Assembly (NCBI GenBank): GCA_049679965.1
Contig: JBAUGX010000176.1
Coordinates: 1,592 to 65,591 of the forward strand
DNA: 64,000 bases
Direction: 5' to 3'
DNA from: Vicinamibacterales bacterium
Lineage (GTDB): Bacteria > Acidobacteriota > Vicinamibacteria > Vicinamibacterales > CAVVIG01
Below the pieces are notes generated by a model that made no database searches, was not told the DNA's origin, and saw only the letters and a program-made list of their open reading frames with translations. This document shows, piece by piece, positions 6,161 through 45,756 of the stretch; position 1 is the stretch's first letter; every line of letters starts with the position of its first letter. Position numbers and translations under genes: made by a program.

Positions 6161-6421
6161 CTAGGTCGACCGTCCCTCGGTGAGCTGCGCGACCTGCGCC
6201 ACGACCTGCGCGACCGTCCGCGTTGTCGCCACGTCGTTGAGGGGAATCGACACGTCGAACCGGTCCTCCAGCTCCGCGATGACCTCGAGGACCTGAAGCG
6301 AGTCGAATCCCAGGTCGGCGACCAGATCGCTGCTGAGAGTCGGCTCGATCGGACGACGGCTCACCCGCTTGAGCACGTCGATCACGCCTTCTTCGATTTG
6401 GGCGGATGCCGGTGGAGACAT
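6161..6421 (-). CDS. Acyl carrier protein
   Basis: 86 aa with the phosphopantetheine attachment motif LGFDSL. It lies directly upstream of the acyl-AMP ligase. Confidence 0.85.
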   Translation of the reverse strand: MSPPASAQIEEGVIDVLKRVSRRPIEPTLSSDLVADLGFDSLQVLEVIAELEDRFDVSIPLNDVATTRTVAQVVAQVAQLTEGRST

Positions 6422-7978: not shown

Positions 7979-8085
7979 GTTCAAGGGTAAAGGATACAAC
8001 GTGATCGGGACCCGTGTACACTGGACCGACATGGCCACGCGGGCGATGGCAACTTCCAGATGAACCCTGGAAAGATGGTTTCGAT

Positions 8086-8952
8086 ATGAAGAAGATCGCA
8101 CTCGCGCTGGCGCTCGTCCTGCTCGCGCCGATCCAGGCCATCCCCCAGACGCGGAGCTTCCTGTGGAAAGCCACGAAAGGACCGGGGGCTGTCTACCTCG
8201 TTGGGTCGCTGCACCTCCTCACCAAGGACTACTACCCGCTCGCCCCGGCGCTCGATGCAGCATTCAAGGATGCGGACCTGCTCGTCGAGGAGGCCGACCT
8301 CGGGGAGATGCTGTCGCCACAGTCGCAGCTCGCCGTGGTCACCCGCGGCATGCTGCCGGCCAACCAGTCGCTCGACCAGCTGGTCTCCCCCGCCACGTTC
8401 GCGCTCGTGACGAAGCGCGTCGCCGCCCTGGGCGCGCCGATCGAGCCGCTCAAGCGCTTCAAGCCGTGGATGATTGCCCTCACGGTTCTGGGACTCGAGT
8501 GGCAGAAGGCCGGCTTCGAACCCGAGCTTGGCCTCGACAAGCACTTCTACGATCGCGCGAGGGCCGAGGGCAAGATGGTGCAGGGGCTGGAGACAACCGA
8601 CTTTCAGATCTCGCTATTTGACTCCATGACGCGCGCGCAGCAGGATCGGCTGCTGGCCGAGTCGCTCGAGGCCTCCCAGACCGAGATGGCCAGCGTCCGG
8701 CAACTGGCCGACGCGTGGCGCGGCGGTGACGCCGCCACGGTCGAGCGGATCGTGCTGGGCGATCTCAGCGACGACCGCGAGCTGTATCAGAGCCTCGTGG
8801 TCAACCGCAATCGTAGCTGGCTGCCCAAGATCGAAGCGCTGTTCGCCCGCCGCGGCCGCGCCTTCGTGGTCATCGGTGCGGCGCATCTGATCGGTCCCGA
8901 CGGCCTGCTCGCCGTCCTCAAGGCGAAGGGCTACGCAGTCGAGCAAATGTGA
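8086..8952 (+). CDS. TraB/GumN family protein (secreted)
   Basis: ATG 8086 gives the signal peptide MKKIALALALVLLAPIQA. GSLHLL and GAAHLIGPDGL blocks are typical of TraB/GumN. The stop overlaps the next start (GTGA at 8949-8952). Confidence 0.8.
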   Translation: MKKIALALALVLLAPIQAIPQTRSFLWKATKGPGAVYLVGSLHLLTKDYYPLAPALDAAFKDADLLVEEADLGEMLSPQSQLAVVTRGMLPANQSLDQLVSPATFALVTKRVAALGAPIEPLKRFKPWMIALTVLGLEWQKAGFEPELGLDKHFYDRARAEGKMVQGLETTDFQISLFDSMTRAQQDRLLAESLEASQTEMASVRQLADAWRGGDAATVERIVLGDLSDDRELYQSLVVNRNRSWLPKIEALFARRGRAFVVIGAAHLIGPDGLLAVLKAKGYAVEQM

Positions 8953-10301
8953 ACGGCGTTTCTGTCCTCGTCGCTGGTGGGGGTCTGGCCGGGTTGACGG
9001 CGGCGCGCGACCTGATCGCGATGGGCGCCACGGTCACGGTCATCGACGCGCGCGACCGCGTCGGCGGTCGCGTGTGGACGATCCGTGACGGCTTCGCCGA
9101 CCGGCAGCACGCGGAGGCCGGCGGCGACCTCATCGACGAATCGCAGCTCGAGATCTGCGGCCTCTGCAGGGAACTGGGGCTGCCCCTCGCGCGCATCCTG
9201 CGCGACGGCTGGGGCTACGTCCGACCGAACGGATCCGGGCAGCCGCGCATCGCGGGTCGGGGCGCCACCGGCGGATGGGATCGTCTGCCGGGGCTTCTGG
9301 AGAACGTGATCCACCGGTATGTTCTGGCTGACAAGCGATGGGACTCGCCGATCGTGGCCGACCTCGCCCGCCAATCGGTCGCCCAGTGGCTGAACGAGAT
9401 CAGAGCGGACGAAGAACTGAGAGGGACTGTCAGCGGCTTGCGCGGATTCTTCCTGGCCGACCCCGAAGATCTGTCACTGCTCGCGCTCGTGGATCAGTTC
9501 GCGGACAGCAACGGCTCGTGGCCGGGGCGCATGTACCGGATCAAGGGCGGCAACGATCAGCTGGCCTCGGCCCTTGCCGCTCCCCTTGGCGGTCGCCTGC
9601 GACTCTCAACCGAGCTGGTCGCCGTGACGCACCGGGGCCGCACGGTGAAGGCCAGCCTCAAACACGCTGGTGGTGCGTCGCACGTCGAATGCGACTACCT
9701 CGTCCTGGCGCTCCCGGCGACGACGCTGTGCCGCGTGCCGATCACGCCGGCGCTGCCCGCCCAGCAGCACGATGCCATCGCGAAACTGCGGTACGGCCGC
9801 GCGACGAAAACGCTGCTGCAGTTCTCGCGACGGTTCTGGCGCGCGCCCGGACGCCCGCGGGCGTTCGGATCGGCGCTGCCGTTCGGCGCGATCTGGGAAG
9901 GCGCCGAAGAGCAGCGCGGCGGCGGCGGCATCCTGACGCTGCTGGCCGGCGGGAGCGCCAGCGACGCCACGCAGAAGATGTTTGCGGCCAACGGCCCGCT
10001 GCAGATGATCGAAGCGCTCGAGTGGCTGGGATCGCGCCGCGCCGAGCTGGTCGCATCGCGCGTGGTGTCGTGGGAGGCCGATCCGTTCGCCCGCGGCGGC
10101 TATGCCTATTTCGATCCCGCCTTCGACCCAGCGCTCCGATCCTGGCTCGCGCGTCCCGCCGGCCGCTTGTTTTTCGCCGGCGAGCACACCAGTTTCCGCT
10201 GGCAGGGTTATATGAACGGCGCCGTCGAGAGCGGCCGGCGCGTGGCCGCAGAGATTGCCGCATCCCACAACCTCTCTGAGATCGGTAAGCCTAAAGTCTG
10301 A
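8949..10301 (+). CDS. Flavin-containing amine oxidase family protein
   Basis: 450 aa with an N-terminal VLVAGGGLAGLTAA...DARDRVGGR FAD-binding motif and a C-terminal FAGEHTS motif. The stop TGA 10299-10301 lies inside the heptamer repeat. Confidence 0.85.
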   Translation: MNGVSVLVAGGGLAGLTAARDLIAMGATVTVIDARDRVGGRVWTIRDGFADRQHAEAGGDLIDESQLEICGLCRELGLPLARILRDGWGYVRPNGSGQPRIAGRGATGGWDRLPGLLENVIHRYVLADKRWDSPIVADLARQSVAQWLNEIRADEELRGTVSGLRGFFLADPEDLSLLALVDQFADSNGSWPGRMYRIKGGNDQLASALAAPLGGRLRLSTELVAVTHRGRTVKASLKHAGGASHVECDYLVLALPATTLCRVPITPALPAQQHDAIAKLRYGRATKTLLQFSRRFWRAPGRPRAFGSALPFGAIWEGAEEQRGGGGILTLLAGGSASDATQKMFAANGPLQMIEALEWLGSRRAELVASRVVSWEADPFARGGYAYFDPAFDPALRSWLARPAGRLFFAGEHTSFRWQGYMNGAVESGRRVAAEIAASHNLSEIGKPKV

Positions 10302-10314
10302 AGTCTGAAGTCTG
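10294..10314. repeat. Perfect tandem heptamer (AAGTCTG) x3
   Basis: Read directly: aagtctg aagtctg aagtctg. It spans the oxidase stop codon and the 5' end of the permease reading frame. Confidence 0.95.
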
Positions 10315-11647
10315 GCGGCCAATTCGGAAGACTGAACTGCCTCAACTCCACCGCGCGATCGGCCTGCGCCAGCTGACCGCGGGCATCATCAACGCCACGA
10401 TCGGCGCCGGCATCTTCGTGCTGCCGGCCGCCGTGGCGGCGGGCCTGGGCCCCGCAGCCCCGCTGGCGTACCTCGCGTGCGCCGCGCTGATGGCACTCAT
10501 CGTCTTGTGTTTTGCCGCCGCCGGCAGCCGCGTCTCGCTGACCGGCGGCCTCTATGTCTATATCGAGGTGGCGTTCGGGCCGCTCATCGGCTTTCTGGCC
10601 GGCGTGCTGTACTGGCTGATGGCGGCCTTCGCGGCGGCCTCGGTCGCCAGCGCCCTTGCCGGATCGCTCGGCGTGACGTGGGCGGGCCTCAACAGCGCGA
10701 TCCCGAGGGGCGTGGTGCTCGTCGCGCTGTTCGCGGTGCTGGCGGCCGTCAACGTGCGCGGCGTGACGGCGGGGACGAGACTGGTCGAGGTCCTGACGGC
10801 CGCCAAACTGCTCCCGCTGGTCGTGCTCGTCGTTTCGGGCGCGTGGTTCGTACGCCTCGAGTACCTGCAGTGGTCGTCGCTGCCCTCCCCGTCGGCGGTC
10901 GGCGCGAGCTCGCTCGTCCTTTACTACGCGTTCGCTGGTGTCGAGGTCGCGCTCGCGCCGAGCGGCGAGATTCGCGATCCGGCGCGCACCGTGCCGCGTG
11001 CCGTGCTGCTTGCGCTGGCCATCACGACCACACTGTACCTGCTGGTTCAGGGAGTCGCACAAGGCCTGCTCGGGCCTTCCCTGTCGACCTATGCGGCGGC
11101 GCCGCTGGCCGAGGCGGCCTCCCGCGTGTTGGGCCCCGTCGGACGGGTCCTGGTTCTCTCGGGTGCGGCCGTCTCCATGTTCGGCTACGTGTCGGGCGAC
11201 CTGCTCGGCAGCCCGCGCGCGTTGTACGCGCTCGGGCGAGACGGCCTGCTCCCGGCTGCCCTCGGGCGCATCCATCCGCGCTTCCACACGCCGCACATTG
11301 CCATCATCACGTACGCCGTGCTGGTCGCGGCGCTCGCCATCAGCAGCAGCTTCACGACACTCGCCGTGCTCTCGAATGTCGCCGCGCTCACACTGTATCT
11401 GCTGTGTGTCGCGGCGTCGTACGAGCTGGCGCGCCGCGATGTCCGCATGGCAGGAGCGCCCTTCGCGTTGCCCGGCGGGCCGACAATTCCAGTCATGGCG
11501 GCGGTAGTCATTCTCTGGCTTCTCTCACAGGCGACCTTCCGCGAGTTCGCCGTCGAAGCCACCGTCCTGGCCGCCGCAACGTTGTTCTACCTCGCGCGGC
11601 GGCGCACCCAGCAGGACGCCGGGCGCCATGAGGCCGCAGTTCCGTGA
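10298..11647 (+). CDS. APC-family amino acid/polyamine permease; start codon uncertain
   Basis: The first canonical start is GTG 10418. However, the conserved TM1 block LRQLTAGIINATIGAGIF lies upstream of it in the same frame, which is open from 10295. There is no ATG/GTG/TTG in 10295-10417. CTG 10298 forms a CTGA stop/start overlap with the oxidase. Confidence 0.75.
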   Translation: MKSEVWRPIRKTELPQLHRAIGLRQLTAGIINATIGAGIFVLPAAVAAGLGPAAPLAYLACAALMALIVLCFAAAGSRVSLTGGLYVYIEVAFGPLIGFLAGVLYWLMAAFAAASVASALAGSLGVTWAGLNSAIPRGVVLVALFAVLAAVNVRGVTAGTRLVEVLTAAKLLPLVVLVVSGAWFVRLEYLQWSSLPSPSAVGASSLVLYYAFAGVEVALAPSGEIRDPARTVPRAVLLALAITTTLYLLVQGVAQGLLGPSLSTYAAAPLAEAASRVLGPVGRVLVLSGAAVSMFGYVSGDLLGSPRALYALGRDGLLPAALGRIHPRFHTPHIAIITYAVLVAALAISSSFTTLAVLSNVAALTLYLLCVAASYELARRDVRMAGAPFALPGGPTIPVMAAVVILWLLSQATFREFAVEATVLAAATLFYLARRRTQQDAGRHEAAVP

Positions 11648-11715
11648 GCCGGCCGTCAGCACCACCCGAGACGAAGCGCTTGCGCCGACCATTCCAGGCG
11701 AGGTACGGTGTCTGC

Positions 11716-12693
11716 ATGCCGCAGGACGACTACATCCGCGTGACCTACGGCGAACCCCACGCCACGCGCGGTCGACAGATGCTGGCGGCGCACCCCGACC
11801 TGCGCTCGTTGGCCGGCCCGATGCCGTCGAGCGCCCTGTGGGTCGTCGCGCTGACGGCGGCCCAGATGGCGCTGGCGGTATTCGTGGGTCCGATGAGCTG
11901 GATGGTCTGGCTGCCCTGTGCCTATGTCGCCGGCGCCACGATCGATCACGCGCTGTGGGCGATGATCCACGACTGCTCGCACAACCTCGTGTTTCGGTGG
12001 CGTACGGGGAACCGCCTGGTGGCGATTTTCGCGAACATTCCGCTCGTCTTCCCCGCGGCCATCGCGTTCTGCAAGTACCACCTCCTCCACCATCGCCACA
12101 TGGGCGACCCGGAATTGGACGCCGGCGTGCCTGGGCCGACCGAGGCCCGCGTGGTGGGTCACTCCGGTGCGATGAAAGCCCTGTGGCTTGCGGGCACGTT
12201 CTTCGTACAGGGGGTCGTCCGGGTCAGACGGTTCACCACCATTCCCTTCCTTGATTTCTGGACATCGATGAACATCATCTTCCAGCTTGGAGCGATGTTC
12301 CTCTTGTACCGGTGGGCAGGCTGGCCGGCTCTCAAGTACCTGACGACCTCGAGCATCTTCGCCATTGGCCTCCACCCGCTCGGGGCGCGGTGGATTCAGG
12401 AGCACTTCGCCCTGGTCCCGGGTCAGGAGACGTACTCGTACTATGGCCCGCTCAATAAGGTGTGCTTCAATCTGGGCTACCACAACGAGCACCACGACAT
12501 CGTGACCGTTCCGTGGGCGCACCTCCCGGAGATTCGCCGTCGCGCTCCTGAGTTCTACGACGGACTGCACTCCTACGATTCCTGGACGGCGCTGCTCATC
12601 CGCTTCGTCCGCGAGTGGAACATCACCCTCTTCTGCTACATCATCAGGCCTGCGCGGCGCGCAGGCACCGCGCAGACACCAGCGAACCGATAG
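11716..12693 (+). CDS. Sphingolipid Delta4-desaturase (DEGS/DES1-like), full length
   Basis: ATG 11716 gives [32 protein letters not shown], matching the DEGS1 N-terminal Lipid_DES block ([27 protein letters not shown]). It has His boxes HDCSHN, HLLHHRH and HNEHHD. Confidence 0.9.
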   Translation: [325 protein letters not shown]

Positions 12694-25190: not shown

Positions 25191-26495
25191 TCAAATCTGC
25201 AATCTGAAATCCAACTTCTGCAATGCCATGACGTCATCCCTGATGATCGTGTCGTGACGCTCCGAGCCGGTTGAGACAATGGCCGCGGGCACCCCCGATA
25301 CCGCTTCGAGCCGTGCGATGTAGCGCTGCGCCGCTTCCGGCAGCTCCTCGAACCGTCTGACGCCGCGGGTCGGCGTCGACCAGCCCGGCATCGATTCGTA
25401 GACTGGCTCGCACGCCGCCAGCTGACCGACGTCTGACGGAAAGTCGGTCAGCGTGCGGGAGCCGCAGCGATAGGCGGTGCAGATGTCGATCCGCTCGAGC
25501 CCGTCGAGGACGTCCAGTTTGGTGAGCGCGAGCGCATCGAGCCCGTTGATGCGGACGCCGTACCGCGCGACCACCGCGTCGTACCATCCGCACCGGCGCG
25601 GCCGGCCGGTGACCGAGCCGTACTCCTGTCCGCTCTCGCGCAGCCGCTGACCGGCCTCCCCGAAGAGCTCCGTGGGCAGCGGCCCCTCGCCGACGCGGGT
25701 CGTGTACGCCTTGACCACGCCAATGACCGCGTCAATCGCGCGCGAGCTGACGCCGAGCCCGGTGCACACGCCGCCGATTGAGGCGCTCGATGAGGTGACG
25801 TACGGGTAGGTGCCGTGATCGATGTCGAGCATCGTGCCCTGCGCGCCCTCGAAGAGGATCGGCCGGCCCGCTTGCCTCGCCTCATGGAGCATCAGCGACA
25901 CGTCGCCGACCCACGGACGAATGCGCTCGCCGTACTGGAGCAACTGTTCAAAGACCGGACGCCAGTCCATCGTGCTGTCGTGGACGAGCCGGTTTCTGGC
26001 TGTGACGTTATCGCGCACGTTCTGCTCGAGCCCGGCCGGGTCGGCCAGGTCGCCAACGCGGACGCCGCGCCGCGCGATCTTGTCCTCGTAGGCGGGGCCG
26101 ATGCCCCGCGAGGTGGTGCCGATCTTGCGGTCCCCGCGGCGTGCTTCGAGCAGGAGGTCCAGATCGCGATGGTACGGCAGGATCACATGCGCTTTGTCGC
26201 TGATGACGATGCGCCGATCGGCGTCGATGCCAGCCCGCAGCAGTTCGTCGACTTCGGCGAGCAGCGCCTGAGGATCGACGACCACGCCGTTGCCAATCAC
26301 GCATGTGACGCCCGGATGCAAAATGCCCGACGGAATCAGCCGCAGGATGAATTTCGTGCCGTTGACGTACACCGTGTGGCCGGCGTTGTGCCCGCCCTGG
26401 TACCGCGCGACAATTTTGAAGTGGGCCGTCAGCAGATCGACGATCTTCCCCTTGCCTTCGTCGCCCCACTGCGCCCCAAGCACTGCGAGATTCAT
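25191..26495 (-). CDS. purA: Adenylosuccinate synthase
   Basis: It has GAQWGDEGKGKIVD and GGHNAGHT and is 434 aa long. The last 10 codons are encoded by a heptamer-repeat element. Confidence 0.95.
   Translation of the reverse strand: MNLAVLGAQWGDEGKGKIVDLLTAHFKIVARYQGGHNAGHTVYVNGTKFILRLIPSGILHPGVTCVIGNGVVVDPQALLAEVDELLRAGIDADRRIVISDKAHVILPYHRDLDLLLEARRGDRKIGTTSRGIGPAYEDKIARRGVRVGDLADPAGLEQNVRDNVTARNRLVHDSTMDWRPVFEQLLQYGERIRPWVGDVSLMLHEARQAGRPILFEGAQGTMLDIDHGTYPYVTSSSASIGGVCTGLGVSSRAIDAVIGVVKAYTTRVGEGPLPTELFGEAGQRLRESGQEYGSVTGRPRRCGWYDAVVARYGVRINGLDALALTKLDVLDGLERIDICTAYRCGSRTLTDFPSDVGQLAACEPVYESMPGWSTPTRGVRRFEELPEAAQRYIARLEAVSGVPAAIVSTGSERHDTIIRDDVMALQKLDFRLQI
25193..25220. repeat. Degenerate tandem heptamers AAATCTG-CAATCTG-AAATCCA-ACTTCTG
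   Basis: Read directly. It belongs to the same family as (AAGTCTG)x3 at 10294 and overlaps the 3' end of purA. Confidence 0.5.
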
Positions 26496-45735: not shown

Positions 45736-45756
45736 CAGACTTGAGCCTTGAGACTT
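45736..45756. repeat. Three tandem heptamers CAGACTT-GAGCCTT-GAGACTT
   Basis: Read directly between the adaptor-2 stop (45728) and the adaptor-3 start (45762). Confidence 0.6.

Follow-up and report, generated by a model that had tools for sequence, protein, structure and literature searches.

How does a transporter gene begin when its reading frame holds no canonical initiation codon ahead of its first transmembrane segment (TM1)? The question is raised by the junction between a flavin amine oxidase gene and an APC-family permease gene in a stretch of 64,000 nucleotides (the window), taken from contig C176 of a 3.97-Mb, 272-contig metagenome-assembled genome (MAG; 65% GC) of a Vicinamibacterales bacterium. 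The oxidase stop codon and the beginning of the open permease frame both lie in a short heptamer array, (AAGTCTG)x3, and we propose, with a probability of about 0.72, that this array is the solo arm of a hairpin element, that a deletion took away the permease start codon, and that the permease is now either weakly initiated at a near-cognate codon or a recent pseudogene.

The oxidase–permease junction and its counterpart in relatives

The array, found by Tandem Repeats Finder (TRF) at 10294-10314 with period 7, 3.0 copies and a 100% match, encodes the C-terminal residues KPKV of the oxidase (8949..10301, + strand; 450 aa; Pfam Amino_oxidase 1.1e-57) together with its stop TGA (10299-10301), formed where units 1 and 2 meet. 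A TAA at 10292-10294 directly precedes the opening of the permease frame at 10295, and this frame contains CTG 10298-10300, which overlaps the oxidase stop by 4 nt as CTGA; this overlap codon is not a canonical initiation codon. There is no ATG, GTG or TTG in any frame of 10295-10417, and the first canonical start is GTG 10418, downstream of TM1. The array, the oxidase stop within it, the opening of the permease frame, the CTGA overlap and the lack of a canonical start had been described in an earlier note made from the letters alone, and each was borne out, whereas its remark that GTGA/ATGA overlaps are used throughout the window was overstated: a crude open reading frame (ORF) screen of the 64 kb yields canonical 4-nt overlaps at three places (8949, 11644 and 47078), two of which flank the oxidase–permease operon. 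A run of 41 codons without a canonical start is not improbable by itself (P ~0.06 at the permease's own codon usage), and CTGA is present at every unit junction, its match to the permease frame being a 1-in-3 event.

The segment ahead of GTG 10418 belongs to the conserved part of the permease. The conserved coding sequence, delimited by Pfam AA_permease_2 and orthologue alignments, begins at LHRAIG, where relatives have LVRAIG, and extends on the forward strand as far as its stop (10346..11647), and TM1 with its IGAGIF motif occupies about 10364-10417 of the same strand, as placed by Pfam and structure alignments; GTG 10418 (10418..10420, +), which gene callers choose to give a 409-aa protein, lies after TM1a and the GAG motif and is residue 42 of the extended frame. 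In this extended frame PF13520 (AA_permease_2) matches residues 22-410 at 4e-41, TM1 included, orthologue alignments begin at residues 17-18, and alignments to solved APC transporters (xCT, GkApcT-type and AdiC) begin at residues 14-23 and include the IGAGIF of TM1; the residues encoded upstream of 10418 include LTAGIINATIGAGIF. Because the Pfam and structure alignments begin upstream of GTG 10418 and cover this motif, a protein started there is predicted to be incompatible with a working transporter. Among the 120 best matches from 5.8 billion proteins, which JGI labels as APA-family antiporters, about 110 have an N-terminal stretch of 6-25 residues (mode 8) ahead of LVRAIG, the lengths being 423-461 aa and the 409-aa call of the window the sole shorter one; none of the 120 listed shares the non-canonical start state. 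In all orthologues examined, the LVRAIG.RQLTASIIN.TIGAGIF block is preceded by a canonical start at a distance of 6-30 codons, and none of the listed homologues begins after the GAGIF motif.

The relatives compared are a same-genus one, 'Acidobacteria bacterium RIFCSPLOWO2_12_FULL_65_11', and other Vicinamibacterales MAGs; the closest relative found is L121, a JGI metagenome contig with the same oxidase–permease–desaturase order and a permease 86% identical. The L121 oxidase also terminates at a TGA within an array, AGGTCTG AAGTCTG AAGTCTG, which is followed by a 27-nt stretch homologous to window 10315-10341 (6 mismatches) and non-coding in L121. L121 then has 44 nt that are missing from the window at the junction 10341..10342, namely GAGTGTGG, the heptamers CAGACTT CACACTT CACACTT, and TTGAGACATGACGACAG, within which lies the called TTG start of the permease; the 44 nt also hold the first permease codons and are flanked by GCCGA direct repeats, as read from the sequence. 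Since the element is complete in L121, the window array (10294..10314, +) appears to be the left arm of an AAGTCTG-type hairpin element, as comparison with other arrays of the genome also suggests, whose right arm has been lost along with the start and the first codons. On this evidence, the permease would be without a canonical start because a 44-nt deletion removed both the inverted right array and the ancestral TTG. The 27 nt at 10315..10341 (+) would be a remnant of the hairpin loop, now inside the open permease frame. The full hairpin of L121 folds at -34 kcal/mol, which is not significantly better than shuffles (z = -1.25).

Canonical starts in heptamer-like sequence occur at the same place in two further relatives: a more distant one (L122) has a TTGA stop/start overlap in TTGAGCC CTGAGCC, and a same-genus MAG (L041/L010) reads ...A TGA GTC ATG AGC C.. 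at its junction, with a canonical ATG. The presence of a start is therefore taken as the ancestral state. The oxidase C-terminal tails vary among relatives in step with their respective arrays, and the array length is shifted by 7 nt between the window and L121 lineages through a degenerate extra unit, AAGCCTA, which precedes the array in the window (10287..10293, +) and is absent from L121 in the alignment. In the same-genus MAG (MELA01000053.1, junction around 1400-1460 of L010 as oriented), the oxidase tail comes from a degenerate GGCTCAG-like x4 array, and oxidase and permease lie in the same frame with just TGA GTC between them before the ATG (ATGAGTC ATGAGCC).

In the predicted course of events, the ancestral oxidase TGA would have lain in the left array, followed by the 27-nt loop and by an inverted right array bearing the permease TTG. 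Slippage between the short GCCGA direct repeats may then have deleted the 44 nt in the window population, costing the element its right arm and the permease its TTG and first few codons. By chance the former loop has no stop in the permease frame, so that this frame would now reach back into the array without meeting a canonical start. The copy number of the array probably drifts, and three or more copies would leave both proteins unchanged. The locus would thus offer a natural example of short heptamer elements reshaping gene boundaries, in that they encode the tail and stop of the oxidase, supply the permease start in relatives, and by partial deletion have removed that start here.

Weak initiation or recent loss of the permease

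Upstream of GTG 10418 the permease frame contains four near-cognate codons, namely CTG 10298, ATT 10322, CTG 10337 and CTG 10364, of which ATT 10322 and CTG 10337 fall in the loop remnant; ATT 10322 stands exactly 8 codons before LHRAIG, i.e., at the modal N-terminal length of the homologues. To weak initiation of the permease at one of these codons, an option that the earlier note had raised for CTG 10298, we give about an even chance, and to any explanation other than this or a recent pseudogene a minor share. Initiation would fall to ribosomes fresh from termination at the oxidase TGA, which lies 0-65 nt upstream, and would take place in an unstructured segment. The GC content of this segment is 49%, against 67% for the window, and the junction RNA has less structure than its shuffled versions (z = +1.4). 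Furthermore, GTGA overlaps at 8949-8952 and 11644-11647 form both outer junctions of the TraB/GumN–oxidase–permease–desaturase operon, so that its junction words (GTGA, CTGA and GTGA) are all NTGA. The low GC content and lack of structure, the short distance from the terminating ribosome, and the GTGA words at the other junctions argue for weak re-initiation, as far as this can be judged from sequence.

Coupling of termination and re-initiation at NTGA overlaps is treated in PMC6728339 and PMC10666635, and the present junction resembles the systems described there in its co-directional genes, its 4-nt overlap at the oxidase stop, the GTGA at both neighboring junctions, and the canonical TTGA overlap that L122 has at the equivalent position; it differs in that the overlap codon is CTG rather than ATG, GTG or TTG, which makes it a candidate start only. 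Initiation at AUU or CUG, though inefficient, may serve a functional gene, as is known from Escherichia coli infC and pcnB, both with AUU starts (bioRxiv 10.1101/063800). Those starts are conserved and regulatory, whereas the non-canonical state here would be the lineage-specific outcome of a deletion. Repeats of this class, lesions that remove a start and coupling at NTGA words are already known; what the locus adds, judging from its sequence, is a candidate for natural near-cognate re-initiation, and should the permease prove to be made, the locus would be one of the rare cases documented in bacteria in which a recently acquired near-cognate start is used by re-initiation.

Selection on the permease bears on both halves of the proposal. 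The ratio dN/dS is 0.20-0.30 on the window branch and 0.16-0.22 on the L121 branch, with polarized changes of 26.5 synonymous to 15.5 non-synonymous and of 39.5 to 18.5, respectively, and no stop or frameshift is found over the 433 permease codons despite a window-branch dS of about 0.13-0.15. With such a ratio and an intact frame, either selection on the permease probably continues or its loss is very recent. The second of these alternatives, a recent pseudogene that has lost its only usable start and yields no permease, or just a TM1-less fragment from GTG 10418, seems to us somewhat less than an even bet. It accords with the loss of the ancestral start, for which no canonical replacement lies upstream of the essential residues; with the low rate of near-cognate initiation (in E. 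coli, CUG and AUU reach about 1-2% of the AUG level; bioRxiv 10.1101/063800), which IF3 opposes; with two substitutions in an otherwise near-invariant N-terminal motif; with five other APC permease matches in the genome that could compensate; and with the standing of the locus as the odd one out among gene-bridging arrays (see below). The low dN/dS and the lesion-free codons count against it, and a loss would have to be very recent, a timing with which the lack of relaxed selection or further lesions is still compatible; also, the deletion is the sole form in contigs of two run series, SRR5739xxx and SRR8893xxx. Whether the gene is a pseudogene or encodes a TM1-containing protein with a non-canonical start, the 409-aa annotation would be wrong.

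Several points weigh against the deletion and the initiation proposed here. The polarity of the 44-nt difference relies on one close relative and two outgroups whose junction DNA cannot be aligned, and an insertion in L121 instead of a deletion in the window is possible, though less parsimonious. IF3 discriminates against non-canonical codons, and re-initiation lacking a Shine-Dalgarno (SD) sequence is sensitive to it (PMC2268962); only weak translation of the permease is therefore to be expected from CTG or ATT. No SD signal favors any of the candidate codons, in a genome where SD signals are weak throughout (true starts -4.9 versus background -4.2 kcal/mol, scored with the canonical anti-SD as the MAG is without a 16S 3' end), and SD scoring cannot pick out a start for this reason. 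At the near-invariant V of LVRAIG the window has H, and at the S of LTASIIN it has G, substitutions that may be early N-terminal decay or a by-product of the deletion junction. Finally, the contigs of the same population are at least 99.94% identical, with one synonymous single-nucleotide polymorphism (SNP) in the permease (10927 C/T), and such data cannot show selection after the deletion. These contigs, obtained by exact protein look-up, are ERZ795399 and ERZ795402 (ENA) and SRR5739199, SRR5739201, SRR5739203, SRR8893712 and SRR8893713 (Logan), 99.94-100% identical to the window; over about 10 kb just four SNPs separate the window from the other assemblies, at 6411, 10927, 12456 and 14950, so that the population is nearly clonal.

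The heptamer family across the genome

Tandem arrays in the genome most commonly have a period of 7: perfect arrays of at least three copies number 54 for period 7, and 8, 15, 16 and 7 for periods 5, 6, 8 and 9, respectively. TRF reports 188 period-7 arrays belonging to at least 14 unit families; 149 of the arrays (79%) are located at the ends of coding-like ORFs or beyond them. The unit found most often is AAGTCTG, and 15 of its 18 arrays have an inverted partner within 100 nt, while the junction array at 10294-10314 has none, even when 4 mismatches in 14 are allowed. Arrays of AAGTCTC have an inverted partner in 8 of 12 cases, and the unit families ACTGCCG, ACCAGCC and AGCCCCC are mostly solo. 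The paired AAGTCTG and AAGTCTC arrays form hairpins between genes, in the order array, short loop and inverted array, with stems of about 21-35 nt, as exemplified in the MAG by C9:6313-6376, C94:16583-16641, C177:5536-5600 and C230:4779-4836. Within the window, TRF also finds heptamer arrays of related units, AAATCTG x2.7 at 25193-25211 and AGACTTG x2.9 at 45737-45756, the latter being a near complement of the AAGTCTG family. Only 1 of the 544 contig ends of the MAG lies within a heptamer array, so contig ends give no sign of general array instability.

Six arrays of the genome contain the stop of one coding-like ORF and the frame boundary of the next. In the other five (C68:1414-1434, C94:5609-5645, C69:1373-1420, C119:6553-6579 and C105:15336-15357), a canonical start follows within 1-8 codons, as against 41 codons at the present junction, and because of this difference the oxidase–permease locus appears to be a damaged member of a normal class of bridging arrays. 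At C68 the TTG start lies within the array itself, TGAGCCT TGAGCCC TGAGCCT.

Heterocystous cyanobacteria possess short tandemly repeated repetitive (STRR) sequences made of heptanucleotides, and the family described here is similar in its 7-nt units, short tandem arrays, many unit families, excess of period 7 and mostly intergenic location. The host, however, is an acidobacterium (Vicinamibacterales, 65% GC) rather than a heterocystous cyanobacterium, the units differ, the AAGTCTG family consists mostly of inverted pairs that form hairpins, and the arrays provide stop and start codons for flanking genes. The term STRR occurs in PMC2670836.

Heptamer arrays in this lineage might act as frame-independent stop/start cassettes, the permease being re-initiated at the CTG of its array within CTGA, an idea that we regard as rather unlikely. 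As 7 is coprime to 3, three units bearing NTGA would provide each frame with a stop and with a potential start, as could be the case for TTGAGAC, TTGAGCC and ATGAGCC in relatives, TGAGCCT at C68 and AAGTCTGA in the window. An array would then close the gene before it and re-open the frame for the one after it, by termination and re-initiation, regardless of phase. If this were true, array turnover would routinely rewire translational coupling and remodel protein termini.

Copy number and the neighboring genes

The earlier note had further suggested that slipped-strand changes in copy number toggle the locus between split and fused proteins. Its arithmetic holds: removal of two units, leaving one copy, joins the oxidase in frame to the permease in an 894-aa fusion (...GKPKVWRPIRKTELPQ...). 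With two copies, TTG 10255 inside the oxidase gene is placed in the permease frame, and with any number of copies from three upward the same two ORFs result, since the unit supplies all three frames with a TGA. We nevertheless consider a switch among split genes (3 copies), a TTG-started permease (2) and a fused oxidase–permease (1) very unlikely. An 894-aa query against the 5.8e9 proteins gave 12 matches (492-1565 aa), none of them with a coverage above 50% of the query or with more than one domain type, so that no protein combines both domains; the earlier note had named the absence of fused homologues as grounds for giving up the toggle, and by that test it fails. TTG 10255 is not conserved, the site reading ATC or GTC in L121 and L122. 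Three copies, with an identical junction, are present in every contig that spans the array (ERZ795399, SRR5739199, SRR5739201, SRR8893712 and SRR8893713).

What speaks for variable copy number, besides the 7-nt difference in array length between the window and L121, is one sample, ERZ795402/SRR5739203, in which contigs from two assemblers, at about 21x coverage, break at the exact edges of the array: the upstream contig terminates at the last base of copy 3, and the downstream contig starts at the first base of copy 1, so that 21 nt of array are retained on both ends. In de Bruijn assembly, a one- or two-copy allele would break contigs after 7 or 14 nt of the array; the observed breaks therefore argue against detectable alleles of this kind in that sample. 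They suggest instead an unresolved bubble between the three-copy allele and a minor allele of at least four copies, which would leave both ORFs unchanged. An exact-pattern scan of JGI metagenome contigs and GTDB genome contigs yielded no copy-number variants of the junction, and a looser loop pattern had no match in the metagenome contigs, where L121's own contig was not recovered either, a collection that lacks these samples.

The tract itself consists of three perfect units and one degenerate unit, which is short for an efficient contingency tract and is not the long tract by which a contingency locus is recognized. Phase variation through heptanucleotide simple sequence repeats is described for Haemophilus influenzae, upstream of hmw1A and hmw2A, in PMC8262952 and PMC12721329. 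The present locus shares with these genes a 7-nt tandem repeat just upstream of a gene and a copy number that could influence expression. The hmw1A/hmw2A tracts, however, are long and demonstrably variable, and act via transcription and processing of the 5' untranslated region, whereas here there are three units, variation to four or more copies would be neutral for the coding sequences, and no expression-changing variant was seen. All in all, the idea that the locus is a slipped-strand fusion switch is not supported. Two other ways of entering the permease frame from the oxidase were considered and rejected: a programmed frameshift would meet the TAA at 10292-10294 in the -1 frame, and no slippery heptamer precedes the TGA; readthrough of the TGA stays in the wrong frame at three copies.

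That GTG 10418 is the true start of a functional 409-aa protein is hardly credible, even though it is the first canonical start and the choice of gene callers on every contig, as the protein would lose residues that align to TM1 and IGAGIF in Pfam and in solved APC transporters and that are present in all listed homologues. An assembly or sequencing artefact, with the right arm and start codon retained in the true genome, is just as implausible: hairpin-forming repeats can trouble assemblers, and the genome is a MAG in 272 contigs, but the junction is identical between SPAdes-type ENA contigs and Logan ones, in several runs belonging to two run series, at a coverage of about 19-21x according to the contig names.

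The operon begins with a TraB/GumN-family gene (8014..8952, +; PF01963 in gene calls on the identical contigs), whose stop overlaps the oxidase start as GTGA, and ends with a lipid desaturase gene (11644..12693, +; from the ORF list and gene calls), whose GTG 11644 forms a GTGA with the permease stop, though gene callers begin the desaturase at ATG 11716 instead. Fusions do occur in this type of operon, though not between oxidase and permease, as indicated by the ENA protein P0130 (591 aa), which holds PF01963 (TraB/GumN) and PF01593 (amine oxidase) in one chain. In addition, P0122 and P0123 (591 and 572 aa; 62-66% identity to the permease) carry an N-terminal PF13380 CoA-binding domain, and the permease N-terminus therefore appears to tolerate large cytoplasmic additions in other lineages.

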